Assembly (NCBI GenBank): GCA_014803525.1
Contig: JAAVBP010000004.1
Coordinates: 54,918 to 118,917, forward strand
From: a bacterium
GTDB lineage: Bacteria; Pseudomonadota; Alphaproteobacteria; Rs-D84
DNA length: 64,000 bases
Direction: 5' to 3'
The notes below the pieces were generated by a model. That model was not told where the DNA came from. It ran no database searches and saw nothing but the letters and a program-made list of their open reading frames with translations. The position numbers and the translations under genes were made by a program. Positions 2,318 to 57,183 of this stretch are shown here, one piece after another (within the stretch, counting starts at the first letter, position 1; every line of letters begins with the position of its first letter).

Positions 2318-3118
2318 TTATTTCGCGACGTAACAATCCAAACCATCTGATTTGGCATTGCGACAGAAACTGTTGGCATCCGCGGATGTTGCAAACGGAA
2401 CGCGCAGACGATATACCGTGCCCCCATCGTTCAGGACGGCCGCCAAAACAACAAACTGGCGTCCATTGAACAATGATCCGTGTGATTTTTTCAGATTGTT
2501 ACCCGCAGCCTCGGCCATGGCACGTGTACTGTATGATCCAAACTGAACATACCACGAACCGTTTGCCGCCGCGACCTGCTTTTTCGGGGCGGGTTTTGCG
2601 GCCGGCTTTGGTTTCGCGGCCGGTTTCGGTTTTGCCGCCGGCTTTACCACTGGGGCCGGTGCCGCGGCCGGGGCCGCATCCGGATTAAATGTCACAGGCT
2701 TTCTATCTTCTATTACGCGAACAGGACTGCCCACGGGTTCCGGCATGGCATTCGGTACCGCATTTGCATTCTGCCCAGGCTGTACCACCGGCGACGGCGC
2801 AACCACCGGAACAACGGGCCCCGGCTGTTCCTGGGGTACGGGCTGTGGCTGGGGCAGCGGTGGAACATCCAACGCATCACCCGGCGCATCAACAACAACC
2901 GCCGGCGCATCCAAATCAACATCCATCGAAGTGGACGAATCGGATGCAATCGTGCGAACAATTATATATGTCGCCAATATTATAACGACAACCCCAATTC
3001 CCAATAACAGCCACGGCTTTTTCGGCCGCGGCGCGGCAAACGGCGCCGCATCCGGTAACACGTCCACAGACGTACCATCATCTAAATCCAACAAATCCAA
3101 GTTATCGTCGTTATTCAT
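2318..3118 (-). CDS. SPOR-domain cell-division protein (single transmembrane segment, Pro-rich linker with PAAKPK repeats)
   Basis: C-terminal SPOR domain (GSWYVQFGSYSTRAMAEAAG...YRLRVPFATSADANSFCRNAKSDGLDCYV). Confidence 0.75.
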   Translation of the reverse strand: MNNDDNLDLLDLDDGTSVDVLPDAAPFAAPRPKKPWLLLGIGVVVIILATYIIVRTIASDSSTSMDVDLDAPAVVVDAPGDALDVPPLPQPQPVPQEQPGPVVPVVAPSPVVQPGQNANAVPNAMPEPVGSPVRVIEDRKPVTFNPDAAPAAAPAPVVKPAAKPKPAAKPKPAAKPAPKKQVAAANGSWYVQFGSYSTRAMAEAAGNNLKKSHGSLFNGRQFVVLAAVLNDGGTVYRLRVPFATSADANSFCRNAKSDGLDCYVAK

Positions 3119-9550: not shown

Positions 9551-10456
9551 ATGAGCAAACAAATCGAACGTATTTTTATTTGTCTGTTATGGCTGCTGGC
9601 GACCAGTCTTGGGGCATGCTTTTGGCTGAATACATTTTTTGGATTTAATATCTTTTCCACCCAGCATTGGCAATACCTGGCGTATCTGCAGGCATCCCAG
9701 ACACCTGTGCGCGGCGGTTTTTACATATCGATTATCATTTTGGCCTTGATTACTGTGATTGGGCTGTATGTATTGATGCGTCCGACGGACGCGCTAAGAC
9801 GCCTGCGCCGCGGACGGCGATCACAAAATGCGCCCGCACAAACCACAACAACACAAACAATGACACAGCCCGCACAACAAATCGAAACGGCCGTGCCACA
9901 ACCTGTGCCGGATATCCAACCCACCGCCACACCAAACGTTAACAGACCGCCCCGCCCTATAAACGCACTGCGCGGCGCACAAACACCGGGCACAACGACA
10001 AATGCCGCACCCGCACCATCTGTGATGCCGAACGCGGCACCAAATAATTTCGAAGAAATAAAAAGCATTTTCACCGACGCCGGATATTTGGTAAAACGCA
10101 GCCCGCAAATCGGAAACTTTAAACCGGCCCTGTTTGCAATTGGGACGAACGAACAATTGTGGATGGGCGGCATTGGCATCAGTCAAAAACCAATAATGGA
10201 TGCAGCCGAACGTATGGCAGGAATATTTTCTGACACACTGGATGACATAGAAATAAGTATAAATACTTTTGTCATTGCGCCAACCGAACCGATTGCGAAC
10301 CCGGATATACTGACATTTGATACGGTTAATCAGTTACGTGAATATATTGATGAAAATAAAAATATTCCGCCCACGGATACAGATGGCGGCCAGGAAAACT
10401 TTGACGCATATTCAGAATACATAGACACAGTCATAACATATATGGATAAAACATAA
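9551..10456 (+). CDS. membrane protein with Pro/Thr/Gln-rich linker, unknown function
   Basis: Two N-terminal transmembrane segments, a disordered P/T/Q-rich region, and a C-terminal globular part; first of four co-directional genes. Confidence 0.5.
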   Translation: MSKQIERIFICLLWLLATSLGACFWLNTFFGFNIFSTQHWQYLAYLQASQTPVRGGFYISIIILALITVIGLYVLMRPTDALRRLRRGRRSQNAPAQTTTTQTMTQPAQQIETAVPQPVPDIQPTATPNVNRPPRPINALRGAQTPGTTTNAAPAPSVMPNAAPNNFEEIKSIFTDAGYLVKRSPQIGNFKPALFAIGTNEQLWMGGIGISQKPIMDAAERMAGIFSDTLDDIEISINTFVIAPTEPIANPDILTFDTVNQLREYIDENKNIPPTDTDGGQENFDAYSEYIDTVITYMDKT

Positions 10457-10962
10457 TGCAACTAAGTCAGAATTCTGCAGAAAAAATTATGGCGGATATG
10501 AATATGGACGATATGCCGCTGACACTGTTGCGGCCAACCACGGCCAATTTGCCCGCCGACTGGTTTGCGAAATATAAAATCGCATGTCATAAATTTATGC
10601 AATCACTGACTGATTCCGTCGAAGAATTAGCATTTATAAATCTGAACCAGCAAGAATTTATGGATTTGTTAACCGGCCAGGCAATACCGACGAATATGTC
10701 AATTCGCATGCGTGTTCCAATTTTCTGGGGTGGCGAAATCAGTCCAGAAAATATGTTCATGTGTTCAACATTTCCGCATTCACAAAATATTGACCGTTTT
10801 ATAATCGGACAATCCGGATATGATGCCGTATGGGTTCCAAACCCCGCAAAAAAAATATATGTTTCCGCGCATACCGGTGGCGGCGGTGCCGGCGGAAACG
10901 CAACCGAAGACAGATTGGCCCAAATGGCCGCACAAATCGCGGCCAGTCACGGCATGGAATAA
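10456..10962 (+). CDS. hypothetical protein
   Basis: Stop/start adjacent to the upstream gene (operon); no recognisable motif. Confidence 0.45.
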   Translation: MQLSQNSAEKIMADMNMDDMPLTLLRPTTANLPADWFAKYKIACHKFMQSLTDSVEELAFINLNQQEFMDLLTGQAIPTNMSIRMRVPIFWGGEISPENMFMCSTFPHSQNIDRFIIGQSGYDAVWVPNPAKKIYVSAHTGGGGAGGNATEDRLAQMAAQIAASHGME

Positions 10963-10982
10963 CACGGGGGACATAACAACAC

Positions 10983-11417
10983 ATGACACGCGACGAATTT
11001 TTATCATCTGTGCGCAGCCGCGGTGCATTCACCGCAAATTCTGCAACGCCGCGCGACATCGCAACAACCAATGCGTTACTGCAGGGAATGCGGGCCGCAA
11101 TGTTACCGCCGGCATTAATAGAACTGTATAACGCAACAACCGCCATATCACGCGGCAGTGCATATATCTTTGGTCCGACCGAGGTCCCACGCCCCAACCA
11201 TCACCCCATACCATCCATTATTGATATTAACCGTGACATGGCACACATTCAATCACTGCGTGGAAAAACAATTTTTGCACGAAACGATTTGTTCTTGTTT
11301 ACGTTTGACGCATTCGGTGTATTTTTCATGATGGATCCGTTGAACCTGCGGTGTCTGCGCAAATATGATGACGCATATCGCGCAATGACAGATTGTCTGG
11401 CGGTGGGGAAAATATAG
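10983..11417 (+). CDS. hypothetical protein
   Basis: ORF in the same operon; no recognisable motif. Confidence 0.45.
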   Translation: MTRDEFLSSVRSRGAFTANSATPRDIATTNALLQGMRAAMLPPALIELYNATTAISRGSAYIFGPTEVPRPNHHPIPSIIDINRDMAHIQSLRGKTIFARNDLFLFTFDAFGVFFMMDPLNLRCLRKYDDAYRAMTDCLAVGKI

Positions 11418-11614: not shown

Positions 11615-11647
11615 AAAAAAGACCGGTAACTACCGGCTTTTTTTATA
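11613..11647. terminator. bidirectional intrinsic terminator (aaaaaaaagaccggtaactaccggcttttttt)
   Basis: Hairpin flanked by A and T runs. Confidence 0.65.
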
Positions 11648-11652
11648 ATATT

Positions 11653-13608
11653 TTAATCGTCAATCCGGCGACCAAAAATTACCACACCCAACACAGACAC
11701 CAATAAAACAATTATCGTCCACACATCGCGACCAATGCGACGATATGGCGTCATATGCGCGTCACCTGCGCGCCCGTCCAGCCACCCTGTCACACCAATT
11801 GGAATCTGTGAAATAATTTTACCGTCCGGTGCAACAAATGCACTGATACCAGAATAATTTGCACGAATAACCGGCAACCCTGATTCGATCGCATAGCGCC
11901 GCACCATATCCAAATGCTGGTACGTTCCAGGCGTACGCCCAAACCATGTATCATTGGTAATATTGATTATTGCGCTGGGCAATTCACCACGCGGGATCAA
12001 AGAATCAGAAAAAATAATTTCATAACAAATCGCCGGCACAAAAACAAATTCGCGACCATTTATATCGATACTTAATAACCGCGGCCCATCGCCCGACGTC
12101 AGGTCTGCTGGCGACGGCATTATTCCCATTGGACTGTATTCGCCAAACGGTACCAGATGCGATTTTGCATAAATATCGGAAACACGCCCCACAGGTGTGG
12201 CCAACACCATTGAATTATACATATGACCATCCATATACGCCGTTGCCCCCATCACAACAGGCACACCCAATATTTTTGAAAACGGCATATCATCGTCTGT
12301 TATAACAAACGGATACGACGTTTCTGGATAGACAATCAAATCAGGCCGCGCCGACATATCTCCATCGGCCCCCAACGCCAATAACATGCGAACATTACGT
12401 TCGGCACGCGCAATCACATCGGCATGGGAATACGACATCTTTTCATCCTGGGGCGCGGCCGGCTGCACAATACGAACAAGCGGAGAATCCGTATCCGGCA
12501 TTTGATTTGAAATATAAATATTATGACGCCCATACCATACACCACACACCAACATAAAAACGAATACAAGCCACGGAATCATGTACATAGCGCGTTTTTT
12601 CGCACGTAAAAATTCAACCGTCGCCGCGATAATTCCGACTATAATAAACGTCAGCCCAACCGCCCCAAACAATGCCATAGAATTTGCAACCATCGGCATC
12701 GGCATCATAATATTTGCCAAGGGATTCCATGGAAATCCGGTCAACACCCATTCACGCGCCCACAGCACCGCGACCCACGCGCCCGCAAAAACGAATGGTC
12801 TGGCCAAGGGCCGTGCGCGCGCTGCTGCAACAAACGGAAATGAAAAGATAATCGCACCCGCCAACGCCAGCCCCAGTATTCCCGGCACCGTCCATATGGC
12901 AAATTGTTGCGCCAGTTCAGGCACAACATATATTGAATGCAGTGCCCACCAAAACATAGCAACCGAATATGCTGCACCAAATGGTGCCACACATAAAAAC
13001 GTGCGCCATACAGATGTACGCGGTGCACCGGTTATCAACCAATATGCCCCCCCTATCCCCAGCAATGTTATCGGCCACATATAAAACGGTGCAAAACCCA
13101 AGGCCGCCGCCACACCACACGCAATCAACGCAACCGTGCGCCAAAATCCGCCACAACGCTGCGGCATCACACTATCAGATTCATATGGATTTTTTATCCC
13201 CAATTTTTCCAATATTTTTATTTCCTTGGCCTCCATTATTTCAGCCTCGTCATCCTGGATATGATCATATCCCTGCAGATGCAGCATTCCATGCACAACC
13301 ATATGCGCAGTGTGTTCGGCAATCGATATTCCGGCGTCACGCGCCTGGCGCGCAACGGTATCCAGCGATATATAAATATCACCTAATAACAGGTCATCAC
13401 CCAGTTCAAATGATAAAACATTTGTCGGTTTGTCTATCCCGCGATATTCTTTGTTTAATTGATGAATTTCCGTATCATCGGTCAGTATAATAGAAACCTC
13501 AACCCCGGCGCGGCGCGGCCCGGCGGCGGTTGCGATTTTCTTAAAATCTATCTTGTACTTTTTCCAGCGCGGATCGTTATAATTAACAAAAACTTGCATA
13601 TCCATCAC
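11653..13608 (-). CDS. lnt: in-frame fusion: endoribonuclease YbeY domain (about aa 1-145) + apolipoprotein N-acyltransferase Lnt (about aa 148-651)
   Basis: HGMLHLQGYDH zinc motif of YbeY; Lnt transmembrane region plus CN-hydrolase motifs (VYPETSYPF, PAICYEIIF); no stop codon between the two domains. Confidence 0.8.
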   Translation of the reverse strand: MMDMQVFVNYNDPRWKKYKIDFKKIATAAGPRRAGVEVSIILTDDTEIHQLNKEYRGIDKPTNVLSFELGDDLLLGDIYISLDTVARQARDAGISIAEHTAHMVVHGMLHLQGYDHIQDDEAEIMEAKEIKILEKLGIKNPYESDSVMPQRCGGFWRTVALIACGVAAALGFAPFYMWPITLLGIGGAYWLITGAPRTSVWRTFLCVAPFGAAYSVAMFWWALHSIYVVPELAQQFAIWTVPGILGLALAGAIIFSFPFVAAARARPLARPFVFAGAWVAVLWAREWVLTGFPWNPLANIMMPMPMVANSMALFGAVGLTFIIVGIIAATVEFLRAKKRAMYMIPWLVFVFMLVCGVWYGRHNIYISNQMPDTDSPLVRIVQPAAPQDEKMSYSHADVIARAERNVRMLLALGADGDMSARPDLIVYPETSYPFVITDDDMPFSKILGVPVVMGATAYMDGHMYNSMVLATPVGRVSDIYAKSHLVPFGEYSPMGIMPSPADLTSGDGPRLLSIDINGREFVFVPAICYEIIFSDSLIPRGELPSAIINITNDTWFGRTPGTYQHLDMVRRYAIESGLPVIRANYSGISAFVAPDGKIISQIPIGVTGWLDGRAGDAHMTPYRRIGRDVWTIIVLLVSVLGVVIFGRRIDD

Positions 13609-13617
13609 CTCTATACA

Positions 13618-15123
13618 CTATGCCATACCATGCCCATTGAACGTCAAATCTGACAGATCAAAATCCGCGCTATGTGCATTGTTTCCAAGCTTTTTTACCC
13701 CATTATTAAACACCGTCTTTTTATTACCAGTTATATTTATATCACACTGGCCACTGCGACATGCGTCAACAACATCCGCCGGCAATACATCGCGAACTTT
13801 CTGTTTGCCCGCCATTGAATTTCCATTTTTATCCACAGGATTTTTTAACCATTCGTGAAATTTTTTATACGTTGCACGATTAATTTTTCTGTAATTTTTT
13901 GTTTCCTTTGTGAAAAAAGCCTTCTTTTTATCGCCGCCAACCTGGGCACACATTATCTTATAAAATTCAGGCAAGCCATCAACTGGCACATCCAAAATAT
14001 CAACCGGATTTATATCACCGGACAATAATCCTGCCTCTATCCATCTACGATATATCAATCCAGGTGCCGGCTGACCACGCGCGACAATATACAATCCCAC
14101 AACATCCGTCAGCTTTTCTGTTTTATCTAATTCCAACAGCACACGCCCAAAACTTGTTGGATTTTTTACCGGATATTTTTTAAATAATTCGCGAATAGTT
14201 TCATCGGAAATATTTGCACCCTCTTTCTTGTAAATTTTTCGCAACTGGGCAAAACGCTCTCTATGATTCCGGTCATTTTTATCCTCTATTGCACCCGTGC
14301 CCATATTATAAACCATAGAGGCCACCATCAATGCCTTTTTCGTGGAATCAAATATTGATTTTCCCAACCCAACTTCATAGCAATACAATTCAAAGTATGT
14401 TTGTTCATCCAAGTGATTACAAGCCAATTCATATGCCTCGGCCGGTGTGATTGGGGGCGTTTCTGGCGTAACAGATTTCCCATTTAACAACATTGTTGAA
14501 CCAAAACCAATTGTGGGTTTTCCCTTGGCCTGTTGCCCGGGTTTTAATGGTTGCCCGGTCGCATCATCATATACGACGTGCATACCATCCCGCATACGCA
14601 CCCCTTCCACAGATACCAAATGCGCCATCAACAGCGGCGACATTGGGCGTAATTTTTCCCGATATGCCCCATATGTATTTTCTGCATAATGTGACGCATT
14701 CCCAAATGGCGTTATTGACTGCTCTGTCTGGGCAATTTGTTTACCTGCATCTTTGCTGTCTGTAATTTTTTCATATGCCTTGCCCCCGCCAAATGTCATG
14801 GCCGCCGCCAGATAATAAATCAAATGCGCAGATATATTCGGGTTCTTTTTTATGTACGCGGGCAGTACCTTGGGCTGGCCCTGTTTGTTTTTCCCGACAC
14901 GTATTTTGGACAATCCGCGTCCACCCGCACGCAACAAGTGATTATCCAATGCCACATATTTCGTTACCCACAGCAAAAACCGAAATGCATCCGCCTCTAC
15001 CCGCTCTATCTCTTGTTCAAGCATGCCGCCAATTGTGGTTGGTTGGCGGTCCTCTATCTCGCGACTGATACGCGCCATGGTGCGGTGTGGCGTATTTACA
15101 GCGTTTCTAAATTTCTCAGACAT
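13618..15123 (-). CDS. multidomain protein with a central GH24 (phage-type) lysozyme domain; no signal peptide
   Basis: EGVRMRDGMHVVYDDATGQP..TIGFGST...ITPAEAYEL...KKALMVASMVYNMGTGA matches the GH24 lysozyme core; unknown N-terminal (about 180 aa) and C-terminal (about 150 aa) regions. Confidence 0.7.
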   Translation of the reverse strand: MSEKFRNAVNTPHRTMARISREIEDRQPTTIGGMLEQEIERVEADAFRFLLWVTKYVALDNHLLRAGGRGLSKIRVGKNKQGQPKVLPAYIKKNPNISAHLIYYLAAAMTFGGGKAYEKITDSKDAGKQIAQTEQSITPFGNASHYAENTYGAYREKLRPMSPLLMAHLVSVEGVRMRDGMHVVYDDATGQPLKPGQQAKGKPTIGFGSTMLLNGKSVTPETPPITPAEAYELACNHLDEQTYFELYCYEVGLGKSIFDSTKKALMVASMVYNMGTGAIEDKNDRNHRERFAQLRKIYKKEGANISDETIRELFKKYPVKNPTSFGRVLLELDKTEKLTDVVGLYIVARGQPAPGLIYRRWIEAGLLSGDINPVDILDVPVDGLPEFYKIMCAQVGGDKKKAFFTKETKNYRKINRATYKKFHEWLKNPVDKNGNSMAGKQKVRDVLPADVVDACRSGQCDINITGNKKTVFNNGVKKLGNNAHSADFDLSDLTFNGHGMA

Positions 15124-15191
15124 TAAAACTAATCCCTTGTTTATTTAATAAAATAATTATACCATAAAAAGGTAACAAAAACCTAACCAAA

Positions 15192-19093: not shown

Positions 19094-20389
19094 TTATTTT
19101 TTTATCGCCTCGTACCACTTTTTCGCACTATTCCACATGATATTTATGTTGTTTTTCGCCGTCTGATAGAACTTGTCCGATATCTGAATATTAAATAACG
19201 TCTTGACCAGTGCTGGAATCATCGTCATAAACATTGAAATAAATATACCCATCATCAGGATTGTTATCACACTGTCGTTGCGCATCATCAGTCCATCCAT
19301 CAAAATTCGCGAATCGTTTTGCGCCAATGCCATTCCTAATCGCGATGCCCCACCCCATTTGCCGAACACCGCATTTAAAAACATTATCGCAAACGTCAGG
19401 AATACACCCGTCATTGCAATACCGACGGTGCCCTTTATAACATCGTCAATCATCTGTTTTATGGTGCGGCCACCCTGGGGAAAAATCTGCCATCCAGAAA
19501 ACAACCACCCCATCAGCATCAATGGCAACATAATTAAATCCATCGCCAACGTTATAAATATTTCCAGGAAATACACCGGGATCGGCAACAACGCCATAAT
19601 AAACAACACCAATATGGTCAGACCCGCAAAAAATATCGGCACATTTGGAAAAATCGGAATTCCCCACATTATCTTGTGCATATATTCCGAATCAAACGCC
19701 ATGTTCAACATCGCCCACCCTATCGTCATCCCCAGGCCGGTTATCTGGTGAACATTTCCAACCTCGCACGCCAGGTTATATCGCAGCATTGGCGAAAACG
19801 CCCCGGCATCCGCCGACGCCGATGTGGAAATCGCCGGATCTGCCATTGCGGTGGCAACAACGCATTCTGTAAAATTACCATCACCGCCGATATTTGCGGC
19901 AATATGATTCACAGACAGACCGACTGTAAATATCGGTTGGATAACAATTGAACTGATCATACGGGGCAACGGCATCACCAGAACCGCACACACCAATCCC
20001 AATTTTATCAAATGCACCCCGAAATCAGACGTAATCGACCACGGCTGATCTATTTTTGCATTTATGAATCCGGAAAAAATCTTCCATCCAAACCACACAC
20101 ATGACAAAATTACAACAAATGGAATTATCACAGTGCCCAGCGCACTGTACGCCTTGGGCAACAAATCAGACATAGTGGCCATAACACCACTGAACATGTC
20201 ACACGACCAACAGGTTGAAAAAAACGACAGCGCATCCGACATATCAAACGGTACCGCATTACGATATACTGAAAATCCAACTATTCCGACCGCACCCGCA
20301 ATTCCACCGACAATAAATGGCGCGACCGCCCCGGCAGACAACGGCAAGAACGACAAAAATACAATCCAAAATTTTTTTAATGCGCTCAT
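19094..20389 (-). CDS. polytopic membrane protein, paralog P0 of a 5-member family (VirB6/TrbL-like hypothesis)
   Basis: Start at the internal Met (MSALKKFWIVFLSFLPLSAGAVAP, signal-like); many transmembrane helices; CWSC motif shared with paralogs; hydrophilic C-terminus. Confidence 0.6.
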   Translation of the reverse strand: MSALKKFWIVFLSFLPLSAGAVAPFIVGGIAGAVGIVGFSVYRNAVPFDMSDALSFFSTCWSCDMFSGVMATMSDLLPKAYSALGTVIIPFVVILSCVWFGWKIFSGFINAKIDQPWSITSDFGVHLIKLGLVCAVLVMPLPRMISSIVIQPIFTVGLSVNHIAANIGGDGNFTECVVATAMADPAISTSASADAGAFSPMLRYNLACEVGNVHQITGLGMTIGWAMLNMAFDSEYMHKIMWGIPIFPNVPIFFAGLTILVLFIMALLPIPVYFLEIFITLAMDLIMLPLMLMGWLFSGWQIFPQGGRTIKQMIDDVIKGTVGIAMTGVFLTFAIMFLNAVFGKWGGASRLGMALAQNDSRILMDGLMMRNDSVITILMMGIFISMFMTMIPALVKTLFNIQISDKFYQTAKNNINIMWNSAKKWYEAIKK

Positions 20390-20399
20390 TGCTTTTAAG

Positions 20400-20429
20400 T
20401 ATATCACATTTTGTCCCAAATGTGATATA
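20400..20429. promoter_or_regulatory. perfect 12-6-12 inverted repeat (TATATCACATTT-tgtccc-AAATGTGATATA) in the divergent promoter region
   Basis: Seen directly in the sequence; lies between the start codons at 20389 (minus) and 20451 (plus). Confidence 0.65.
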
Positions 20430-20450: not shown

Positions 20451-21743
20451 ATGAAAACGTTGCACAGAATCTTATCCGGAACATTGTTGGCATGTATTAT
20501 GCTGTGCCCGTGCGCCGCGCATGCCGAATGGGGCATCGTGGACAGCCTGAATCTGGCGCCGTTTGTTCCACTGGTTTTGGATGCGTTTATGACGGTTGCA
20601 ACCGGCGGATATGAATTCTTGGTTCGTGACACAAATGGCCACATGGGAATTATATACGTTCTGATATGGGGATTTTTAGCCATATCTATGGGGTTGTATC
20701 TGGTAAAGATGTACTTTCCATCAAAATGGCTGGGCGTGTTTGGATTTTCCGGCGGCGGTGAAATGATTTCCGGCAAAGCAACCGGTATGACCATCGCACA
20801 AAACATGCTAAAGCCTGCCATGCGCGCAATTATCGCGGCGGTTGTTTTACTGCAGATAAAGCCGATATATGTAACAGAATGGCTGGTAAATCCATTTATG
20901 GAATTCGGCGCAATTTATACAGATGCCATCACCAGCGGGATTAACACCGGCGGCATTACGGGTGGCACCACAGAACCGGTCGAATGTCCGCAGGATATAC
21001 TGTCCCAGGGATGGATTTCCGCGCGCAGTTGCACATTCATAACCCAACCCGTTGCCGACATCAGTCACGTAAACAATCAAATGATAAAGCGCGGCCTGGA
21101 CTTTGTGCACCGTGGGCTGCGGGGATTAATCACACTGATCCCGCATGGCGGTACAGATTTCATGAATCTGGTATCAGGTATATTGTTGGTCGTGACATTT
21201 GTCGGATGCAATCTGTTTATGGCCCTGCTGATTATCCAGGCGATATTTGATTTCGGCATGTCGTTGATTCTGTATCCGTTCCAGGTTTTGACATGGGTCG
21301 CAAAACCAAAAAATCCAGACAAATGGTTTGATGTATGGCCGGCATTTTCTGGAATTATCAAGGCACTGCAGAGTATGGTTATAACCATGATTGCATGCGC
21401 GTTTATATTAACAATCAATATCGCAATTATACGCGCATTGTTTAATTGGAACAATTCTGTGTTTGTCGTGGCCGCTGGCGGCAGCGCGTCCAGCAACGTT
21501 CCCACCCCCGCGGGCACCGCCATGGGATTTGGCGAACATTCCATTTTATGGCTGTCTGCGATACTGACGTTTTATTTGATGTTGCGCATATTTAATTTAA
21601 CACGCGAAAGATTAAGTATGTACGCACCCGCCAAAGACACCATGTACAAAAAGGTAACCGGCGATACAAAACGTCTGTTGGGCGATGCCAAGAATTGGGG
21701 CAAAACAATCGGCCGGGCCGCTGGATGGATAAAGAAAAAATAA
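20451..21743 (+). CDS. polytopic membrane protein, paralog P1
   Basis: Signal peptide, at least 6 transmembrane helices, Lys-rich C-terminus. Confidence 0.65.
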   Translation: MKTLHRILSGTLLACIMLCPCAAHAEWGIVDSLNLAPFVPLVLDAFMTVATGGYEFLVRDTNGHMGIIYVLIWGFLAISMGLYLVKMYFPSKWLGVFGFSGGGEMISGKATGMTIAQNMLKPAMRAIIAAVVLLQIKPIYVTEWLVNPFMEFGAIYTDAITSGINTGGITGGTTEPVECPQDILSQGWISARSCTFITQPVADISHVNNQMIKRGLDFVHRGLRGLITLIPHGGTDFMNLVSGILLVVTFVGCNLFMALLIIQAIFDFGMSLILYPFQVLTWVAKPKNPDKWFDVWPAFSGIIKALQSMVITMIACAFILTINIAIIRALFNWNNSVFVVAAGGSASSNVPTPAGTAMGFGEHSILWLSAILTFYLMLRIFNLTRERLSMYAPAKDTMYKKVTGDTKRLLGDAKNWGKTIGRAAGWIKKK

Positions 21744-22919
21744 ATGAACAATGTGCTGAACCCTTTGATTGATGAAACGGTGCAATGTTGGGGTTGCCCG
21801 GTATTTGACCGCCTGTTTGGCGTGATATCCACCGCGGCGGCGGCCGTGTACGACCGGTTTGTGGTTATATGCGCCGTTTTGTTCTGTATATTGTTTGCAT
21901 TCTTTGCATTAAATGCGGTATGGAAAAACATTCGCGGCGGCGGCACTGATCCGTTTTATCAAAAATCACTGCGCCCGGTTATTATAAATTCAATTGTTGC
22001 ATTTTCATTGCTGGGACTTGGGGTGGCATTGCCCCGTTTTGTGTCGCAAATCACATTTGAACCGGTTGCCGATATAACAACAATTTATACACAAAGCATT
22101 TTGCAAACAGATGCGGACACCGTAAACGAACGCGTCACGTATCAACCCATGCCAATGCCGGATGATGGTTTCTATCGGCCCCAATTGCGTGATAAAATAA
22201 TACTGATTATGAAGACAACAATCACCCAGTTTCAATCATATATGAAACTGGGGCTGGCGGTGATAGATCGCGCATTCGAATGGGATGCCATGTTGGGGAT
22301 CGGGGCGTTTTTAAAACATATAATCATTCTGTTTTTAGGGATATATTTGTTTTATGGATTTTTCAAATTATTTATAAAGTTCTGTTTTTATTTTGCAGAT
22401 GTAATTATCGCAATGACATTTTTTGCATTCTTTTTCCCATTTTCTATAACCATGGTGGCATTCCGTGGCGCAGACGGACCAAAGTGGATGTCAGGGCTGG
22501 CCAAAAACGTTGGCACAGACCAATTTAAAAAAGTTGTTGGTGCCATAATCGGCCTGGCGGCAACAGTGTTAACATACACTGTGATGATGGTAATAATTGC
22601 AAAATATTTTTCCGCACCGGGCCAATCACCAACGGAATTAATGACACTTATCCAAGACGGCAATGTGTTTTCCGCCGACCTGAACGAAGACAACATTGCC
22701 CAGATTACGTTATTCAGTGCAATCGTTTTGGTTTATGTTCTGAACTTTATATATGAACAAATCCCCAAGGCAACACAAATGGTGCTTAGCGCGTTTGACG
22801 TCAGCACGGAAACCGCCCTTAGCGAGCAATTGGCCAATGACGCAATGCGGCTGACATCTGTGGCGGCCAGTTATATAAAAAACATTGGCGGCAAAATAAC
22901 AAACGGCGGTAATAAATGA
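21744..22919 (+). CDS. polytopic membrane protein, paralog P2
   Basis: Starts immediately after the P1 stop; CWGC motif; multiple transmembrane helices. Confidence 0.65.
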   Translation: MNNVLNPLIDETVQCWGCPVFDRLFGVISTAAAAVYDRFVVICAVLFCILFAFFALNAVWKNIRGGGTDPFYQKSLRPVIINSIVAFSLLGLGVALPRFVSQITFEPVADITTIYTQSILQTDADTVNERVTYQPMPMPDDGFYRPQLRDKIILIMKTTITQFQSYMKLGLAVIDRAFEWDAMLGIGAFLKHIIILFLGIYLFYGFFKLFIKFCFYFADVIIAMTFFAFFFPFSITMVAFRGADGPKWMSGLAKNVGTDQFKKVVGAIIGLAATVLTYTVMMVIIAKYFSAPGQSPTELMTLIQDGNVFSADLNEDNIAQITLFSAIVLVYVLNFIYEQIPKATQMVLSAFDVSTETALSEQLANDAMRLTSVAASYIKNIGGKITNGGNK

Positions 22920-24355
22920 AAGCGCAACTGATCATGATTGGCATACGACTGGTAATGGGTGCAATTGCGCTGGGGGTTGGTATATGGTATTTGTCATCAT
23001 CGATCGGCGGCGCGGCAATTACATATACCAGCATGGATAATTTCATGTCCGCCATCGGTGCATCCAATGATATTGCCGGCGCCAATGGATGCTTTATGTG
23101 CGGATATGTATCGGAACTGTTCGGTGTAATCGGACGTGCAACCGAAATGTTTTGGACAGCGATATTGGATTGGCTGTGGGTGCTGATGGCCCTGGGGTTT
23201 GGCGTATTTTTATTTATCAGTGCCATCCAGCATATATTCGCCGCCGCCAAAGACACCGCAAAAGTGGATGCCAACGAAAAAAAATTGGAATTCAAATCCT
23301 GGTTTGACAAGGTCTGGCGCCAAGGCGCGCGCATAATGATTGTTGGCGCGATGATTGGGGCACTGGGCATGGGCGGAACAACCGCACTGAGAAGTGTTGC
23401 AAGCGTAACAATTACACCCGTAATGTTTGTGGGCGCTGAATTATCCATGGCGGCGACCGGCACAGGATCCGCTGCACAATGTAATGCCATTCGCACATCA
23501 GCCAATGATGCAGGCGATATTCTAAACCCGATAATGGGCCCGTTTATGTGCGTCGTCGGAAATTTAAACAGTGTAATGTTGGCGGGCGCGGCCGGCGGAT
23601 TTGCATTGATGAACTATGCGTGGATGGGAATGGGCGGCGGAATATTTACGTGGGTCGCGGGATTGGCACTGGTTCTGATGTTTTTGGTGATTGGATTTAA
23701 TTTATTTTTCCAGGTTCTGTCGGTCGTATTTAAACTGGTGTTTTTGATAATATTCCTGCCGTTCTTTTTGGCGGCCGCCGCATTTGAAAAGACATGGAAG
23801 ATGGCATCGGGCCTGACCAGTAATGCGATAAACATGCTGGTAAAATCCGCAGTGCAAATTGTCGGTATCACATTAAAAGTATTAATTATTTACGCAACCG
23901 TGTCATATGCCGCCGATGAATTTTTCCCCGGCCCCGCCGATGGATACAGTGCGATTTTTCCACCAATCCTTAGTGCAACACCACAAAACCCAGACGCACA
24001 AACAATGTCCGTGATACAGGTATTTTCAGAATGCGAACGCGTGGCAACGATCGGCGGCGAAATGGATGCGGATGCATTCAAAAACTGTTTTGTCACCCGC
24101 AAAGCATCGGTTGAACAACAATACCCCGGCGCATTTGATTTCATGTCCGATGGGTGGGATTTCCTGATGTTGATGATTGGATTATTCCTGTTGTATTTCT
24201 ATGTTGTTGAACCGCGTGTGAACAAGATACTGGCCGCCCCCGGCAAGGATGAATTTGACTTTGGCACATGGACCAAAGATTTAGGCAAAAAGATATGGTC
24301 GGCACCCACACAAATATTTGGCGCCGTGTCCAAGGCAATGGGCAAAAAGGACTGA
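22916..24355 (+). CDS. polytopic membrane protein, paralog P3
   Basis: ATGA overlap with P2 (translational coupling); CFMC motif; multiple transmembrane helices. Confidence 0.65.
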   Translation: MKAQLIMIGIRLVMGAIALGVGIWYLSSSIGGAAITYTSMDNFMSAIGASNDIAGANGCFMCGYVSELFGVIGRATEMFWTAILDWLWVLMALGFGVFLFISAIQHIFAAAKDTAKVDANEKKLEFKSWFDKVWRQGARIMIVGAMIGALGMGGTTALRSVASVTITPVMFVGAELSMAATGTGSAAQCNAIRTSANDAGDILNPIMGPFMCVVGNLNSVMLAGAAGGFALMNYAWMGMGGGIFTWVAGLALVLMFLVIGFNLFFQVLSVVFKLVFLIIFLPFFLAAAAFEKTWKMASGLTSNAINMLVKSAVQIVGITLKVLIIYATVSYAADEFFPGPADGYSAIFPPILSATPQNPDAQTMSVIQVFSECERVATIGGEMDADAFKNCFVTRKASVEQQYPGAFDFMSDGWDFLMLMIGLFLLYFYVVEPRVNKILAAPGKDEFDFGTWTKDLGKKIWSAPTQIFGAVSKAMGKKD

Positions 24356-24359
24356 CGCG

Positions 24360-25670
24360 ATGAAATGGCCAAATAAATTTTTAAAGAAAATTATCACGTG
24401 CCTGGTCGTGGCAACATTGGTTTTTTCCGCGGCGCACGCGGCCGGAAACCTGCCCGGCGCCGCAGGTGGCGACATTGGCGATTATGGCGCATGGACAACA
24501 CCAAACAATCGCGAACAAATCACAGGCGCCATGTCACGCGACCTGGATGCATTTCAATCTGAATTTCAAACCCAGGTTATAGATAATTATGTCCCGATCG
24601 AGGCCAAAGTCGGCATCGCATTTATAAACGGCATGGCGTATATAGGCCGCGTTTTGGACGGTTCACTGGTGCGTTTTATGACAATATTCATATTGATAAT
24701 GTTCATATTCTGGGTCAGTTTTGAGGCATACCAGATTATAACCGGCACCACAGAAATTAAAAAGTCAATCGAAGGCATCGTCAAAAAAGGCGGCATGATT
24801 GCAATATGGTTAATCGTACTGCAATTTGGTGCCGCACAAATTTTCATGTGGGTGATGGGCCCGATTATAACCATCGGCACATATACATCGGATTTAATTT
24901 TGAATGCGGTAACATCAACCGCGGGCGCATCCCTGCCGGACACATGTGGCGCGATACGCGAATACGCCGCCACGCACGTATCAAACGCCGCCATTGTCGA
25001 TGCAAATGCGGCGGCAGATTTGATATGTTTGCCAACGCGACTGTCCGGATTTTTCTATACCGCCGTGGCGGTTGGATTTAAATGGATGTTGCTTGGGATC
25101 GGGTTCAGTGCCCTGACCTTTATGGCGGGTGCGATATTTGTAGTGGTGTTTTTAATTTTGATTTGGAAATTTGCATTGCTGGCACTTGGCGTGATTGCAG
25201 ATCTATTTTTAGCCGTATTCATGTTGCCGTTCACCGCGGTCGCGGAAACAATTGGTCAAACATCGTACAAGGGAATCGCCGGCAACATATTCAACGGATT
25301 TTTAAAAATATTTAATGCAGAATCATTATCAACACAAATCGGACGCTTTATTAACGCGGCATTGTTCTTTGTGTCTTATTCAATTGTGATCGCGGTATGC
25401 GCGGCATTGATGACCGGTATAATTGATGTTAAATTATCGGCCGTCACACCATTGATAAACACCGATCAATGGATTATCGTTATACTGATCGGGGCACTGG
25501 TATGGTATCTGGCGGACAAGGCATCGAAAATCGCAAAAGATCTGGGCGGCAATATCGACGACAACATCGGCCAGCAATTTGGCAAAGATATCGTAACCTG
25601 GGCCAAGGATATTCAGAAAACATATCAGAAATATCGCAAATTATACCAAGACAGCAAAAAATCATCTTAG
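24360..25670 (+). CDS. polytopic membrane protein, paralog P4
   Basis: Start MKWPNKFLKK... with signal peptide, 5 nt after the P3 stop. Confidence 0.65.
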   Translation: MKWPNKFLKKIITCLVVATLVFSAAHAAGNLPGAAGGDIGDYGAWTTPNNREQITGAMSRDLDAFQSEFQTQVIDNYVPIEAKVGIAFINGMAYIGRVLDGSLVRFMTIFILIMFIFWVSFEAYQIITGTTEIKKSIEGIVKKGGMIAIWLIVLQFGAAQIFMWVMGPIITIGTYTSDLILNAVTSTAGASLPDTCGAIREYAATHVSNAAIVDANAAADLICLPTRLSGFFYTAVAVGFKWMLLGIGFSALTFMAGAIFVVVFLILIWKFALLALGVIADLFLAVFMLPFTAVAETIGQTSYKGIAGNIFNGFLKIFNAESLSTQIGRFINAALFFVSYSIVIAVCAALMTGIIDVKLSAVTPLINTDQWIIVILIGALVWYLADKASKIAKDLGGNIDDNIGQQFGKDIVTWAKDIQKTYQKYRKLYQDSKKSS

Positions 25671-28603: not shown

Positions 28604-31033
28604 TCATTCCCCGCTTGGGCTGCATACGCCATTTTTCAAACTATATCCCGACTTACAAACACAAATACCGGTTGTCGGATTACGTTCCATATTTTTACCA
28701 CCGCACTTTTGCACACATGAACTACCAAATACCTCGTATCCAACTTTACATCTGCAATACTCATTGACATATGCGCTATAGACATCAGTCGATGTTATTA
28801 TTCTGTCGCCAGAATAAATAGTCGACCAAAACAGATCCTTGGACCAGCCCGTTATACCAACACCCGTTAAGTGGATTGGGGTACACGTCATATCATTGCT
28901 TCGCGCCCTTTCAGGGGAACAAGTACTACCGTCGTTTTCTATAAGTTCCAATACCTCTGTACGTGATTTTGATACATATTCCGAATTTTCTGGGCACAGC
29001 ATAGATTGATAGAATATCTTGGACACTTCTTCGATATAACATTGTGGTGAATCATCAGTATATCCATCCATTTCACAACTGTTGTTATCATATATCGCCA
29101 TACCACAGGTCAGTGCCACATTCCGGCATGCACCATTCATTACGTTTTTAATACTGGATGCCGCGGCCGACGTGGTCCATGTATTAATCTGGGTAACCTG
29201 TTGGTTATAACATGCGGCCACATCCAACATACAATTGGACGCATAATCAGAAATAATTTTTTCCTGGCCCGATTTGATATTAACCATTGCACGCTGGATA
29301 TAATTTACAACAATGTCATTATATTTATTATAGTTACCGTTGCTGTCATACGTGTAACGCTGACACTTGTCCAAAACGGCACGGCACAATCCCCCGTCGG
29401 TGGATTTGGCGCCGGTTCCGATTTTTTGTAACAAATATGCAACCGTGCACGATCCGTTTCCAACATTTTTTACATACGTTCCTTTATCATTTTCAGAGGA
29501 ACCAACAGTACCATCTGTATATGCTGTCAGAGTATTACCATTCTGGTATACAGGATATGGCTTGCAAGTGTTATCCGATATCAACAGCCCAGCAGCATCG
29601 GTTAAGAATTTTGTATTTATTTGTGAATTATCATACGCGTACATCAAATCACGGATATTGGTTACGTCCATCCCCAGAACAACTTCGCCATTTTCGTCGA
29701 TATACTTTTTGGTCGGATCCAGACACTTTTCATAATTTTCACCACAAACCATTTCGTCGGTCATGCACGCATCCAATGCGGCAATACAACCCTTGGCATC
29801 ATATTCGTTTTTATTTTGCAACACGGCCAGTCGCGCCTTTTGCAGCATTAAATTCGCACTGCGTACATTCGACACCAATGTTTCATTCATTTTGTTCAAA
29901 CCGGCCTCGTACGCGATACAATCGCGATCAATCGCCAGGTCGTAATTTGATGTAATCTGATCCTTGGTCGCGCCGGCGTCTTTGCATTGTGTCAGAATTG
30001 AATTGCAACGCTTTTTCGCCGCGTTATATAATTCGGTCCCACGCAGGTTTGAAATACTGCTGCTGTTGTTATTTAAAAAATCCAAACTAAACAAATCCGA
30101 CGAATCAGAAAAATCCAGATTCATATCCATCAAGGATATTCCATCCGTACCGGCAACACTGCTGGTGGAACTGGATGGATCTTTGATTAATGCCGCAATA
30201 TCGTCCAGCATGCTGCGTGTTTCCGATGTATCACGCGAACCAGACAGTGCCTCTTCTGCCTCGGTCGCGGACATGATCGCACTGATTTCATCCGCAGACA
30301 GGCCAACATAACGAATACGCTGGGCCACGTCATTTAATTGCGAATTCGCATCCTTGACCGCGGTTTCAACCTTGGTATAACGGGATAAATTGGCACTGCA
30401 TGAACAGCGCTTTTGATTTGAATCAACAACGGCACAAAATTGATCCATGCAATCGTTATACTGTTCTTGGCAAGACTTGTTCAATTCGGCTGTTTGTTCA
30501 AGACGCTCTTTGGCCTCTGAAATTGTTTCGCGTTGATTTTTTGCGGTACCCGCGCGCGACTGTAATGCACGCACAGAATTCCCGACATTTGATCCCGTCT
30601 GAACACCGGTATTACCAATTGTGGCGCGACCGCCAACCTCGGCCGTGGATGGGCGCAGTGTCAATCCCGCACGCCGCACCGGCGCCGTATTATTAATCGA
30701 TGATGCCGCACGCGTGGAATTACGGCCAACTGTATTCGTCGCCGCATCCAAACCGGTACGCGAGGATGATACATTTGCGGTCGTGCCACGGGCCGCGGTT
30801 GCGCGTGATGACACGGTTCCGGTGCCTGATGTTGACGTGGCGGTTGCATTGGAACGCGTTGCACGCGACACCGCGCTGCGCGATGCATCGCCGTCCCCAC
30901 GCGTCGATGTTGATGTGGCGGTGGTATCCGCGGTGGCGTTTGAATTTCCCGACGGTAACGCACGCGACGCCGTGGCGCCACTGGCACCAGACATAACAAA
31001 AACTGATAAAATATATGCAATCAGCCTTTTCAT
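28604..31033 (-). CDS. large secreted Cys-rich protein with an S/T/A/R-rich low-complexity N-terminal region
   Basis: Signal peptide MKRLIAYILSVFVMSGASGA; about 170 aa of low complexity; then a Cys-rich globular region of about 600 aa. Confidence 0.6.
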   Translation of the reverse strand: MKRLIAYILSVFVMSGASGATASRALPSGNSNATADTTATSTSTRGDGDASRSAVSRATRSNATATSTSGTGTVSSRATAARGTTANVSSSRTGLDAATNTVGRNSTRAASSINNTAPVRRAGLTLRPSTAEVGGRATIGNTGVQTGSNVGNSVRALQSRAGTAKNQRETISEAKERLEQTAELNKSCQEQYNDCMDQFCAVVDSNQKRCSCSANLSRYTKVETAVKDANSQLNDVAQRIRYVGLSADEISAIMSATEAEEALSGSRDTSETRSMLDDIAALIKDPSSSTSSVAGTDGISLMDMNLDFSDSSDLFSLDFLNNNSSSISNLRGTELYNAAKKRCNSILTQCKDAGATKDQITSNYDLAIDRDCIAYEAGLNKMNETLVSNVRSANLMLQKARLAVLQNKNEYDAKGCIAALDACMTDEMVCGENYEKCLDPTKKYIDENGEVVLGMDVTNIRDLMYAYDNSQINTKFLTDAAGLLISDNTCKPYPVYQNGNTLTAYTDGTVGSSENDKGTYVKNVGNGSCTVAYLLQKIGTGAKSTDGGLCRAVLDKCQRYTYDSNGNYNKYNDIVVNYIQRAMVNIKSGQEKIISDYASNCMLDVAACYNQQVTQINTWTTSAAASSIKNVMNGACRNVALTCGMAIYDNNSCEMDGYTDDSPQCYIEEVSKIFYQSMLCPENSEYVSKSRTEVLELIENDGSTCSPERARSNDMTCTPIHLTGVGITGWSKDLFWSTIYSGDRIITSTDVYSAYVNEYCRCKVGYEVFGSSCVQKCGGKNMERNPTTGICVCKSGYSLKNGVCSPSGE

Positions 31034-31118
31034 TCCTGATATTTATTATACCACAACGTAACAGCACAAAAAAGGCCAAAATAAACACCGCCCCGTTTTT
31101 ATTCGGGGCGGCGCATAA

Positions 31119-31847
31119 TCAGAACAATATATTTAATTTCAAACCAACCTGAAATTCGCTGTCTTCGAATTCATAATCGACATGCCCGATATATTGCGTG
31201 CGACCATATTGGCGAATAATCTGTCCGTTTATCCATTCCTGGTCAAAGTCCGGATTGGTGGACTTTCGCAAATCCGCCCCCAGCCCCAGACGCCACGCGG
31301 CACGCAATCTAAAATAAACCTCTGGTATGAAATCAATGTATGACATGCCACGGTCATCATCGAAAATCCAACTGGACTTTACCGTACCGGCCAATGTCAT
31401 TGTATCATATTCGCGCCCGAAACGCAGACCCGCATAATATGTTGAATCTGCAAACCATGGGGTGCGCACACGTGATGAACCGCCAAACTTAAAACCAAAC
31501 AAAACATCGGATATGATACGCACATCATTGTCCGCCGCGGTCATCATGCGATATTTTCCGCCCAAATCAAAGCTTGAGAAACCGTCTTCACCACCCGCAA
31601 AATCATTTTGATAATGCAGCGAAATTCCCATATTAAACCGATCGGTAAACCCGTACGACAATGCCTGGCCCAGGCGCAAAATACTGTCGTAATATGCAAC
31701 GTTTGATGTCGATAAAATATCACCCCGCCCGTTCATATATAACGGATCCGATGTATCATATTCTGCAACATTTGCGTGCGCCGACACCACCGCACCAGAC
31801 ATGACAACCGCCGCCGCGGCCGCCATAAATATTTTTTTGAACCACAT
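31119..31847 (-). CDS. outer-membrane beta-barrel protein (OMP1)
   Basis: Signal peptide; alternating hydrophobic pattern; C-terminal ...NILF. Confidence 0.6.
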   Translation of the reverse strand: MWFKKIFMAAAAAVVMSGAVVSAHANVAEYDTSDPLYMNGRGDILSTSNVAYYDSILRLGQALSYGFTDRFNMGISLHYQNDFAGGEDGFSSFDLGGKYRMMTAADNDVRIISDVLFGFKFGGSSRVRTPWFADSTYYAGLRFGREYDTMTLAGTVKSSWIFDDDRGMSYIDFIPEVYFRLRAAWRLGLGADLRKSTNPDFDQEWINGQIIRQYGRTQYIGHVDYEFEDSEFQVGLKLNILF

Positions 31848-31874
31848 TTTTATTTACCCCCGCATTATAAACAC

Positions 31875-31907
31875 GCGCCACACCCCGGATTAATCCGGGG
31901 GGCGCGC
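31875..31907 (-). terminator. GC-rich hairpin between OMP2 and OMP1
   Basis: cgcgccacaccccggattaatccggggggcgcg nested stem. Confidence 0.45.
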
Positions 31908-31919
31908 ACATGACCAACT

Positions 31920-33188: not shown

Positions 33189-33262
33189 GATTTTATTTCT
33201 CCTTTTGGCTTGGATTATATCACAAAAAGGTAACCCAAAAAAGCATAAAGTAATTCGTACAT

Positions 33263-33850: not shown

Positions 33851-34035
33851 ATTTGCCCCCATTGTTACAATCAAACAAAAAACCACTGGAAACAAATTTC
33901 AAGTGGTTGGAGGTTAAGAACAACCTAGGGATTGCCCACCTTATTCAGATATATCGGTGGCCTCCAACCGTGGTTGGAAAAAATGCGCCTGCGTCCGTAC
34001 CAGACGCACCCTAGGATATCGAGGTTCTTAAGCCC
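33851..34035 (-). promoter_or_regulatory. structured leader element, variant copy B1, upstream of OMP3
   Basis: GGTTGGAGG...CCTCCAACC helix, outer helix TAAGAAC/GTTCTTA, inserted tgcgtc...gacgca hairpin, ccact...agtgg + T-run terminator, then Shine-Dalgarno. Confidence 0.5.
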
Positions 34036-39623: not shown

Positions 39624-39664
39624 CATGCCAATCCCCCCATATAATTGCGGCGCCACAATATGCA

Positions 39665-57176: not shown

Positions 57177-57183
57177 CCGACAA

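Follow-up and report, generated by a model that had tools for sequence, protein, structure and literature searches.

This analysis focused on a lysozyme gene in a 64-kb stretch (the window) of contig JAAVBP010000004.1, from an alphaproteobacterium of the order Rs-D84. The 501-amino-acid (aa) product reads as a domesticated, probably membrane-tethered lysozyme of the T4 type, a kind of protein that is already known; the novelty lies in two uncharacterised modules and in conservation across an uncultured order. It is probably a lineage-specific, vertically inherited muramidase of family GH24 that works in the periplasm, on a tether from the inner membrane, and cuts the peptidoglycan of the cell that makes it. 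To our knowledge, few cases have been described in which phage lysozymes became permanent host genes (SpmX, SagA, TtsA).

The open reading frame (ORF) encodes a protein identical to the public-database entry MBD5400379.1, 'lysozyme [bacterium]'. A database search returned 154 homologues, the best with E=1e-173, and the ORF is therefore real and conserved, and not a chance occurrence. The Pfam scan gave 25.5 bits for Phage_lysozyme (PF00959) over residues 191-281, against a gathering threshold of 22.3, and the same family was recorded in many of the homologues. The endolysin family PHROG_7 matched residues 199-375 (E=8e-8), while an NCBIfam scan gave nothing useful. Searches of Protein Data Bank (PDB) sequences with the whole protein as query gave zero matches, and those with the full family profile were swamped by TPR proteins, but a profile of the GH24 region alone found weak matches to 9kbq, P22 lysozyme (2anv) and 7m5i. 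An AlphaFold2 model built from 81 relatives had a mean predicted local distance difference test score (pLDDT) of 82.7, with residues ~145-460 above 90. Its best Foldseek matches in PDB were GH24 endolysins (6et6, 9kbq, 8app, 1xjt, 3hde, 4zpu). Fourteen such chains were matched with probabilities of 0.95-1.00 and target TM-scores of 0.43-0.70; seven had E-values of 0.01 or lower, every one being above 0.001. Viral models (BFVD) searched in the same way also returned lysozymes, at 15-22% identity. With the Pfam threshold exceeded and a two-lobed fold in the model, the central domain reads as a GH24 lysozyme of the T4/P22 type, and the family belongs in GH24, and appears to lie outside the SpmX, SagA and signal-arrest-release (SAR) groups as these are defined. 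The initial annotation had also described a 501-aa ORF with a central GH24 domain, and the motifs it quoted are present; the central position stands, while the span it gave, residues 180-340, has to be extended to about 148-378.

Conservation was counted in an alignment of 81 family members. No member departs from E173, G174, V175, Y185, T204, I205, G206 or G208, and at least 90% of them keep D187. They lie in the motifs E173-G174, Y185-D-D187 and G201-K-P-T204-I-G-F-G208, and ITPAEAYEL and ALMVASMVYNMGTGA are also present. About a third of the members (31/81, against 50/81 without it) carry a loop insert between D187 and T204, and the profile used for alignment with P22 and T4 was built from members that lack it. 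The family stretch pYkDskGvpTiGfG aligned with aYsDsrGiPTIGvG of P22 and iYkDteGyyTIGiG of T4, so that Y185, D187 and T204 correspond to Y18, D20 and T26 of T4 lysozyme. The catalytic Glu of that enzyme, E11, sits at the end of helix A. Its likely counterpart is E173, judging from the E-G-V triplet in 81/81 members, its position at a helix end in the model, and the resemblance of LIADLIAKEGV to IFEMLRIDEGL. Hidden Markov model alignments did not bridge the hairpin insertion, and put the Glu-Gly of the profile on T190-G191 of the insert, or on the hairpin turn, rather than on E173. This shift is an alignment artefact and a pitfall for annotation, as automatic alignments can falsely imply that the catalytic Glu has been lost. 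The Glu/Asp/Thr set looks intact, so the active site is apparently unattenuated and activity is predicted. Comparison of this set with the T4 and P22 enzymes had been proposed at the outset as a check on the GH24 assignment, and the outcome was favourable, D187 and T204 being placed by the profile, and E173 by motif, invariance and model position.

Both flanks of the catalytic domain had been described initially as lacking recognisable motifs, a view that does not hold, as a conserved N-terminal module (N-module) and a putative hydrophobic anchor lie on one side of it, and a C-terminal domain that is predicted to fold on the other (Table 1). Conserved motifs of the N-module are MSEKFRK.VN.PH, LDNH.LR..E and KK.PN, and the modelled helices span residues 3-24, 31-59, 62-72 and 86-93 (pLDDT 61-89). 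Pfam, NCBIfam and PDB sequence searches of the module were without match, and a word-indexed homologue search using the N-terminal 120 aa alone found nothing, which is a limit of such searches. Its profile, run against 1.84e9 representative proteins, gave 127 matches, all but one at or near the N-terminus, in proteins mostly of 450-680 aa, and the module preceded a hydrophobic segment in each sequence inspected. The small number of matches in so large a set means that the N-module is family-specific. The linker following the anchor is variable (median identity to the query 9%, versus 42-46% in folded parts).

The C-terminal domain carries the motif FFTG..VN..TY..F..WL.NPV, with W425, P429, P448 and C455 invariant and C460 present in 74/81. 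Predicted alone, it gave a pLDDT of 91.4 and a predicted TM-score (pTM) of 0.77, and Foldseek found no matching fold in PDB (best E=2.7, probability 0.02). Most orthologues continue with a TPR domain of ~160 aa, and TPR Pfam families were recorded among the homologues. In alignment A1 the TPR block is missing from the query and from P0005, P0008 and P0014, and present in the other 11 sequences. Lengths fall into two classes, 480-525 aa in 6/81 (the query and five others) and 592-674 aa in the rest, and as the aligned sequences read, the query and those five have lost the TPR cleanly and in frame. The family ends in Ala in 51/81 members (last codon of the query, 13621..13623), and in '-MA' in 20. 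The window also has, at 38124..39665 (-), a gene for a C-terminal-processing protease of family S41 that contains a PDZ domain, and any protease-control link with the Ala end is purely speculative.

The N-terminus is polar and carries no classical signal peptide, as the initial annotation had stated. The membrane topology is instead suggested by the internal Gly/Ala-rich segment, a putative signal-anchor. Its Kyte-Doolittle mean over 19 residues was 0.87 in the query and about 1.2 in the family (maximum 1.76), and its composition was 14% each of G, A and L. By hand count, G/A/S/T make up 9/18 residues in the query and 10/17 in a short form (L060); in the query the segment is internal, and a 30-aa linker follows it. 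The 25 residues before the segment hold on average 7.4 K+R and 2.0 D+E, and the 25 after it 3.9 and 5.8, giving net charges of +5.4 and -1.9, an asymmetry found in 81/81 members. By the positive-inside rule, which relates flank charge to membrane orientation, an N-in/C-out orientation is therefore indicated, and the N-module would be cytoplasmic.

Divergent homologues from rumen metagenome-assembled genomes (MAGs; loci L059-L068) lack the N-module (~95 aa); their chains open with a K-rich n-region and continue with SALGIATAALVAGGVA.. (e.g. SALGIATAALVAGGVAMHG), after which come the same GH24, C-terminal and TPR domains. Their tblastn alignments begin within query residues 105-112, and their neighbours are of housekeeping type (queA, tgt, lemA and a gene for a class II tRNA synthetase). 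As their sequences read, these short homologues open with a plain N-terminal signal-anchor. One locus of this group (L067 8001..9311) encodes a 436-aa orthologue with an internal deletion from the GH24 C-lobe to the TPR region, which may mean that the copy is degenerating or that the locus was misassembled. The putatively exported part of the family retains several cysteines (C248 in 79/81, C455 in 81/81 and C460 in 74/81, besides a fourth in 53/81). Because of the charge asymmetry and the signal-anchor start of the short homologues, the catalytic domain is most likely periplasmic; the cytoplasmic location first proposed conflicts with both, and with the conserved cysteines.

Table 1. Coordinates of the lysozyme gene, its parts and associated features (positions are those of the window unless a locus is named).
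Feature	Residues	Position	Strand	Basis or remark
Lysozyme gene	1-501	13618..15123	-	ORF with ATG start, 501 aa; stop TAG at 13618-13620
N-module, K/R-rich, all-helical	1-96	14836..15123	-	Alignments A1-A3; AlphaFold2
Hydrophobic Gly/Ala-rich segment (ISAHLIYYLAAAMTFGGGKAY)	97-117	14773..14835	-	Putative signal-anchor, N-in/C-out; SAR-like composition
Linker/tether, variable, predicted disordered	118-147	14683..14772	-	pLDDT <50 at 112-139
GH24 catalytic domain (predicted)	148-378	13990..14682	-	PF00959; PHROG_7; pLDDT >90; Foldseek matches to solved and viral GH24
E173 codon, candidate catalytic Glu (T4 lysozyme E11 equivalent)	173	14605..14607	-	E-G-V in 81/81; ends helix 151-173 in AlphaFold2 model
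D187 codon (T4 lysozyme D20 equivalent)	187	14563..14565	-	At least 90% conserved; profile alignment to P22 and T4 lysozymes
Loop insert between D187 and T204 (ATGQPLKPGQQA)	188-199	14527..14562	-	11-12 residues; alignment A1
T204 codon (T4 lysozyme T26 equivalent)	204	14512..14514	-	Invariant; profile alignment to P22 and T4 lysozymes
C-terminal alpha/beta domain, 84 aa	379-461	13741..13989	-	Conserved; folds alone (prediction)
C-terminal tail, low confidence	462-501	13621..13740	-	Site of in-frame TPR loss
Upstream signals in rarA/lysozyme spacer		15133..15161	-	Exact TATAAT 15156-15161; AAGGGA, Shine-Dalgarno-like, 15133-15138, 9 nt before ATG; weak evidence
ybeY-lnt fusion gene, downstream		11653..13612	-	Pfam YbeY, LNT_N and CN_hydrolase in one ORF
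Terminator-like hairpin and T-run after lnt		11622..11637	-	Consensus scan; likely end of transcription unit
P0204-virB10 loci		L075 6001..11780; L076 2327..8106		No virB8 or virB9 nearby

When one genome per GTDB species was scanned, the family was present at 69 loci. Almost all of these were in MAGs labelled 'Candidatus Enterousia' or uncultured gut or rumen Alphaproteobacteria, with one in a closed chromosome of 958,618 bp. In about 60 of the 69, from different species, the gene order was that of the window, namely rarA(-), the lysozyme gene (+), ybeY-lnt (+) and three conserved ORFs, followed further on by gltX, and very divergent members also keep their place beside rarA. The neighbours in the window are rarA, ybeY-lnt, trmB, gltX and thrS. 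The gene is apparently a vertically inherited, single-copy core gene of the clade. Neither the 50,697 phage records nor the 72,556 plasmid records searched by tblastn with the lysozyme contained a relative. A phage origin detectable by close similarity was rejected, there being no such match and the viral folds being only 15-22% identical. With no close phage match, any phage ancestry must therefore be ancient.

These data bear directly on whether the gene is merely the remnant of a prophage endolysin, possibly of SAR type and devoid of a host function, an explanation that can be given almost no weight. The fold does match those of phage endolysins, with P1 Lyz and R21 of the SAR type among them, and the putative anchor is likewise Gly/Ala-rich and weakly hydrophobic. 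Yet the ORFs scanned in the window included none for a holin, spanin, capsid, tail protein or integrase, the reading frame is intact, the extra domains are conserved, tblastn of the phage genomes was blank, and the shared position in ~60 species already contradicts a remnant. The G+C content of the gene (0.46-0.47) is like that of its flanks. The sole tyrosine recombinase in the window (46114..46983) lies ~31 kb off and has the two-domain Pfam architecture of XerC/D; we take it to be a housekeeping enzyme. The initial annotation, which had placed the gene outside a prophage and had seen no phage genes nearby, is borne out by the housekeeping neighbours and the conserved position.

The arrangement of the protein suggests how it may work. 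Residues 1-96 would form a helical module on the cytoplasmic side, and residues 97-117 an uncleaved signal-anchor in N-in/C-out orientation, leaving the catalytic domain and the 84-aa accessory domain in the periplasm on a disordered tether of ~30 residues that would set the reach of the enzyme. As in T4 lysozyme, the water would be positioned by D187 and T204, with E173 as the acid, and the bonds cut would be those between N-acetylmuramic acid and N-acetylglucosamine (MurNAc-GlcNAc) in the cell's own glycan strands, only within reach of the tether. The TPR of most relatives, lost in the query, probably docks the enzyme to partner proteins; N-module, C-terminal domain and TPR are candidate elements for control or docking. 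The process served may be general wall remodelling, in growth, division and turnover, an assignment that is plausible and offered tentatively, at less than even probability. Genes for the wall and envelope in the window include those for a SPOR protein, FtsK, CtpA, LptF/G and Lnt, and the organism therefore appears to make peptidoglycan and to have an outer membrane. The SPOR-domain protein (266 aa, domain at the C-terminus; 2318..3118 (-)) indicates that septal peptidoglycan is processed in this organism.

Several observations weigh against a tethered periplasmic muramidase with such a household role. The segment is marginal in the query, its hydropathy falling below the usual transmembrane cut-off of ~1.6, and a second semi-hydrophobic helix occurs at ~36-59 which, if it also spanned the membrane, would leave the catalytic domain in the cytoplasm. 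The gene is also the fastest-evolving of its neighbourhood, with a median identity to the query of 37%, versus 56% for YbeY-Lnt, 78% for GltX and 82% for RarA; the periplasmic part has been remodelled among orthologues, and both features would also fit a protein facing other organisms. In reduced genomes, moreover, a conserved gene order says little about whether the gene and ybeY-lnt are functionally linked.

The first two of these observations would suit a cytoplasmic or non-catalytic scaffold, in which the GH24 domain served protein-protein interactions, the two semi-hydrophobic helices forming a hairpin with both ends in the cytoplasm. There is a precedent in SpmX, the muramidase domain of which was concluded to have been repurposed for protein interactions (10.1101/418723). 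However, SpmX has the attenuating D20L replacement, while the present family keeps E173, Y185 and T204 in every member and D187 in nearly all. Both flanks of helix ~36-59 carry positive charge, so a two-span hairpin would break the charge rule, and the charges place the K-rich loop inside and the acidic linker outside in 81/81. The short homologues with a plain N-terminal signal-anchor and the cysteines conserved in the putatively exported part point the same way, and a scaffold is regarded as very unlikely.

Remodelling of the exported part is best seen in the members with the weakest N-module matches (P0153, P0237, P0142 and P0223), which are positional orthologues with altered exported parts, in a family where orthologues are at most 57% identical, a divergence at which synonymous sites would be saturated. 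P0153, between rarA and trmB, has a Peptidase_M23 (M23) domain inserted after the anchor, plus TPR; P0237, between rarA/ros-mucR and ybeY-lnt, has M23 at its C-terminus; P0142 and P0223 gave no Pfam match, yet adjoin rarA. Read by eye, all four retain a stretch like E...Y.D..G..T.G.G, and M23 is therefore an addition and not a replacement. The idea that the N-module is a general anchor swapped among hydrolases was rejected in its strong form on the same ground, the members with M23 keeping a divergent version of this stretch.

Rapid evolution and gain or loss of modules, M23 and TPR included, would also fit an offensive enzyme used to break through the wall of host or prey bacteria, whether once freed from the membrane or where two cells touch. 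Enterousia, in the order Rs-D84, has genomes of 0.75-1.0 Mb encoding RodA, MreB and MrdA, with very limited metabolism, and for members of the order an obligately symbiotic or parasitic life, with metabolites drawn from other cells, is predicted; a dependence on partner cells is suspected (PMC12306168). The fully intact triad, unlike that of the attenuated SpmX, would be suited to such a role. Nevertheless, an enzyme anchored in the inner membrane of a cell with an apparent outer membrane (LptF/G, Lnt) would need an unknown route of release or export, and the gene is single-copy, at a fixed chromosomal position and not in a variable island. No recognisable immunity gene is nearby, and no PAAR, VgrG, Rhs or type VI or VII secretion system Pfam domain was found in the gene or its neighbours across the window. 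An offensive function is decidedly unlikely, and the exported antibacterial or host-targeting effector put forward initially loses ground for the same reasons, there being no secretion marker nearby and the protein reading as membrane-anchored. PADLOC gave no defence-system match, and membership of such a system was rejected.

A further possibility is that the tethered muramidase is dedicated to a type IV secretion system (T4SS), opening the wall locally for assembly of VirB8/9/10, an activity that has been reported for Brucella SagA and for enzymes of the VirB1 type; this would be a special case of the mechanism described above. The initial annotation had suggested looking for T4SS or type VI genes elsewhere in the genome, and this was fruitful in part. 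The window contains none of either kind, and tblastn with VirB8/9/10 found nothing there or in ~70 other 17-kb family loci. Another contig of the window's assembly, ERZ27267576, carries a virB8-cagX/virB9-trbI/virB10 cluster (L084 7728..12412) adjoining secE-nusG-rplKAJL-rpoB, a layout repeated in L079 (7721..12427); neither cluster has a VirB1-like gene beside it. The VirB10 of ERZ27267576 (P0351, MBD5400253.1, HDR61_00690) is 126 accession numbers away from MBD5400379.1. This proximity and the shared assembly suggest that lysozyme and VirB10 come from one MAG, and the organism very probably has a T4SS core.

In addition, two independent assemblies have the gene for a distant relative of 1137 aa, P0204 (N-module, M23, TPRs), 75 nt upstream of a gene for a 763-aa TrbI/VirB10 protein, both genes being read in one direction. 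This VirB10 has more than 120 close homologues (~50-55% identity, ~760-850 aa) in similar gut MAGs labelled Alphaproteobacteria or Rickettsiales, and SagA offers a T4-like, membrane-tethered precedent with an E/D/T set (PMC8334348). Against this, the gene stands beside rarA and ybeY-lnt in ~60 genomes rather than beside T4SS genes, and the sole virB10 adjacency is in a rearranged genome, where a rough estimate puts the rate of chance occurrence at a few per cent. Additions of TPR and M23 are also more typical of hydrolase systems for growth and division, such as those of NlpI, LpoA, CpoB, EnvC and DipM. A link between T4SS and lysozyme would rest on one adjacency and on analogy, and dedication to a T4SS is possible, on balance doubtful.

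A bolder version would have the cytoplasmic module gate the lysozyme across the membrane, making the protein a wall cutter peculiar to these obligately partner-dependent gut Alphaproteobacteria with tiny genomes. It would open the envelope to serve either the conserved T4SS of the clade or an apparatus for cell-cell contact through which host metabolites are drawn. This is an unlikely alternative. If true, rapid evolution and domain shuffling would reflect adaptation to partners, not housekeeping, with an intact phage-type lysozyme joined in some lineages to an M23 endopeptidase.

The closest functional models for a tethered muramidase of this kind appear, by analogy, to be SagA of Brucella abortus and TtsA of Salmonella Typhi. 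Like the present family, they are chromosomal, non-phage, T4-lysozyme-like enzymes with Glu/Asp/Thr, and they serve a secretion process. SagA is a hydrolase with the residues E17/D26/T31, for which a transmembrane segment and linker were hypothesised to confine activity near the T4SS (PMC8334348). The hypothesised hold of SagA at the inner membrane, by a single transmembrane segment and a linker, would be comparable to the putative tether described here. The SagA anchor is, however, C-terminal (residues 223-245), whereas the putative anchor of the family is N-proximal, behind a 96-aa module. SagA, which lacks a TPR, carries a helical peptidoglycan-binding domain where the family has a different 84-aa domain and usually a TPR. 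Neither SagA nor TtsA was among the Foldseek and sequence matches, and a peptidoglycan-binding domain of the SagA type was undetected in the lysozyme protein.

SpmX of the Caulobacterales is a domesticated GH24 protein in which the GH24 domain comes first, a proline-rich region follows and two transmembrane segments lie at the C-terminus, and it carries D20L (10.1101/418723). It resembles the family in being phage-type GH24, single-copy, restricted to a clade of Alphaproteobacteria, equipped with extra regions and membrane-anchored, as is predicted for the family. The order of its parts is reversed relative to that of the family (N-module, anchor, linker, GH24, C-terminal domain and usually TPR), the family keeps D187 in at least 90% of members where SpmX has the attenuating replacement, and SpmX comes from another taxon. 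The SpmX structure, 6H9D, was not among the PDB sequence matches of the family profile.

The SAR endolysins P1 Lyz (1xjt) and R21 of phage 21 (3hde) share the GH24 fold and a weakly hydrophobic, Gly/Ala-rich segment before the catalytic domain. SAR domains reportedly provide holin-independent export, as the segment of the family would. These endolysins are phage-encoded within a lysis cassette, while the gene studied here is chromosomal, without pinholin or spanin, and the long forms of the family have an internal segment, a 96-aa module before it, a 30-aa linker after it and extra C-terminal domains. The VirB1-type enzymes of GH23 (T4SS, type III secretion, flagella) may share a role in local wall opening, and one relative of the lysozyme adjoins virB10; they are, however, lytic transglycosylases, while the GH24 Glu/Asp/Thr set is expected to be hydrolytic, and the lysozyme gene lies outside the virB cluster. 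Control of hydrolases or synthases with the help of TPR proteins is seen in NlpI-MepS-Prc, LbcA-CtpA, LpoA and CpoB, and most family members join hydrolase and TPR in one chain. In these known systems the TPR protein is a separate lipoprotein adaptor, whereas that of the family is fused, and absent from the query, so that the comparison is an analogy only.

At the locus itself, rarA is divergent from the lysozyme gene across a 68-bp spacer in which a consensus promoter scan found no full match. The ATG of ybeY-lnt (13599) lies 18 nt past the lysozyme stop, and is preceded by a Shine-Dalgarno-like AGAGGTGA at 13605-13612; the consensus scan found no terminator-like site between the two genes. 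Because the gap is short, no terminator intervenes, and a hairpin with a T-run follows lnt, the lysozyme gene and ybeY-lnt are likely to form a bicistronic unit, and their co-transcription is probable. In E. coli, ybeY and lnt are separate genes of one operon. In this clade, YbeY and Lnt are fused in one protein of 648-670 aa (the window, and also L001, L078, L081 and L082). Three ORFs on the opposite strand (9551..11417 (+); 301, 168 and 144 aa) converge on ybeY-lnt, are syntenic in ~58 genomes and were matched by neither Pfam nor PADLOC; the first of them carries two transmembrane segments at its N-terminal end, and a Pro/Thr-rich linker. In two deeper lineages a gene for a Ros/MucR regulator lies directly upstream of the orthologue (L078 5746..6123, L081 7634..7990, L082 3256..3612), a gene that the window does not have. 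Brucella MucR chromatin immunoprecipitation peaks have been listed at sagA and virB genes (PMC10746212).

The remainder of the window is largely of housekeeping type, and includes uvrD, ftsK, secDF, mutL, lptF/G, typA, recA, greA and dksA, besides thrS, gltX, trmB, rarA and the genes already mentioned for the XerC/D-type recombinase, SPOR protein and S41 protease, together with glycosyltransferases; it contains no tRNAs. The G+C content is even throughout, with a minimum of 0.418 at 54-56 kb, and six glycosyltransferase or capsule-synthesis genes (54566..60128) coincide with this lowest stretch. An orphan block at 28604..33895 (-) encodes signal-peptide or membrane proteins of 809, 242, 480 and 210 aa without family match. 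Five adjacent polytopic membrane proteins of 391-479 aa are encoded at 19094..20407 (-) and 20451..25670 (+). They have several segments with Kyte-Doolittle values of at least 1.6, are weak paralogues (23-27% identity, E 1e-4 to 6e-6), and gave no Pfam match at E<0.1 and no PDB or plasmid match. Their arrangement is reminiscent of the virB6 genes that Rickettsiales carry in tandem; an identity as VirB6 finds no Pfam, PDB or plasmid support.

The lysozyme family represents an independent case of domestication, fixed across an order of uncultured gut bacteria with genomes of ~0.75-1 Mb. Genes kept in such reduced genomes are usually needed. The annotation labels 'lysozyme' and 'TPR protein' have masked one coherent orthologous family. 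An apparently fully active site, combined with two modules without known relatives and the usual TPR, makes the family a tractable candidate model for the control of a potentially lethal enzyme, and the lysozyme together with virB8/9/10 provides a handle on envelope management in partner-dependent bacteria.

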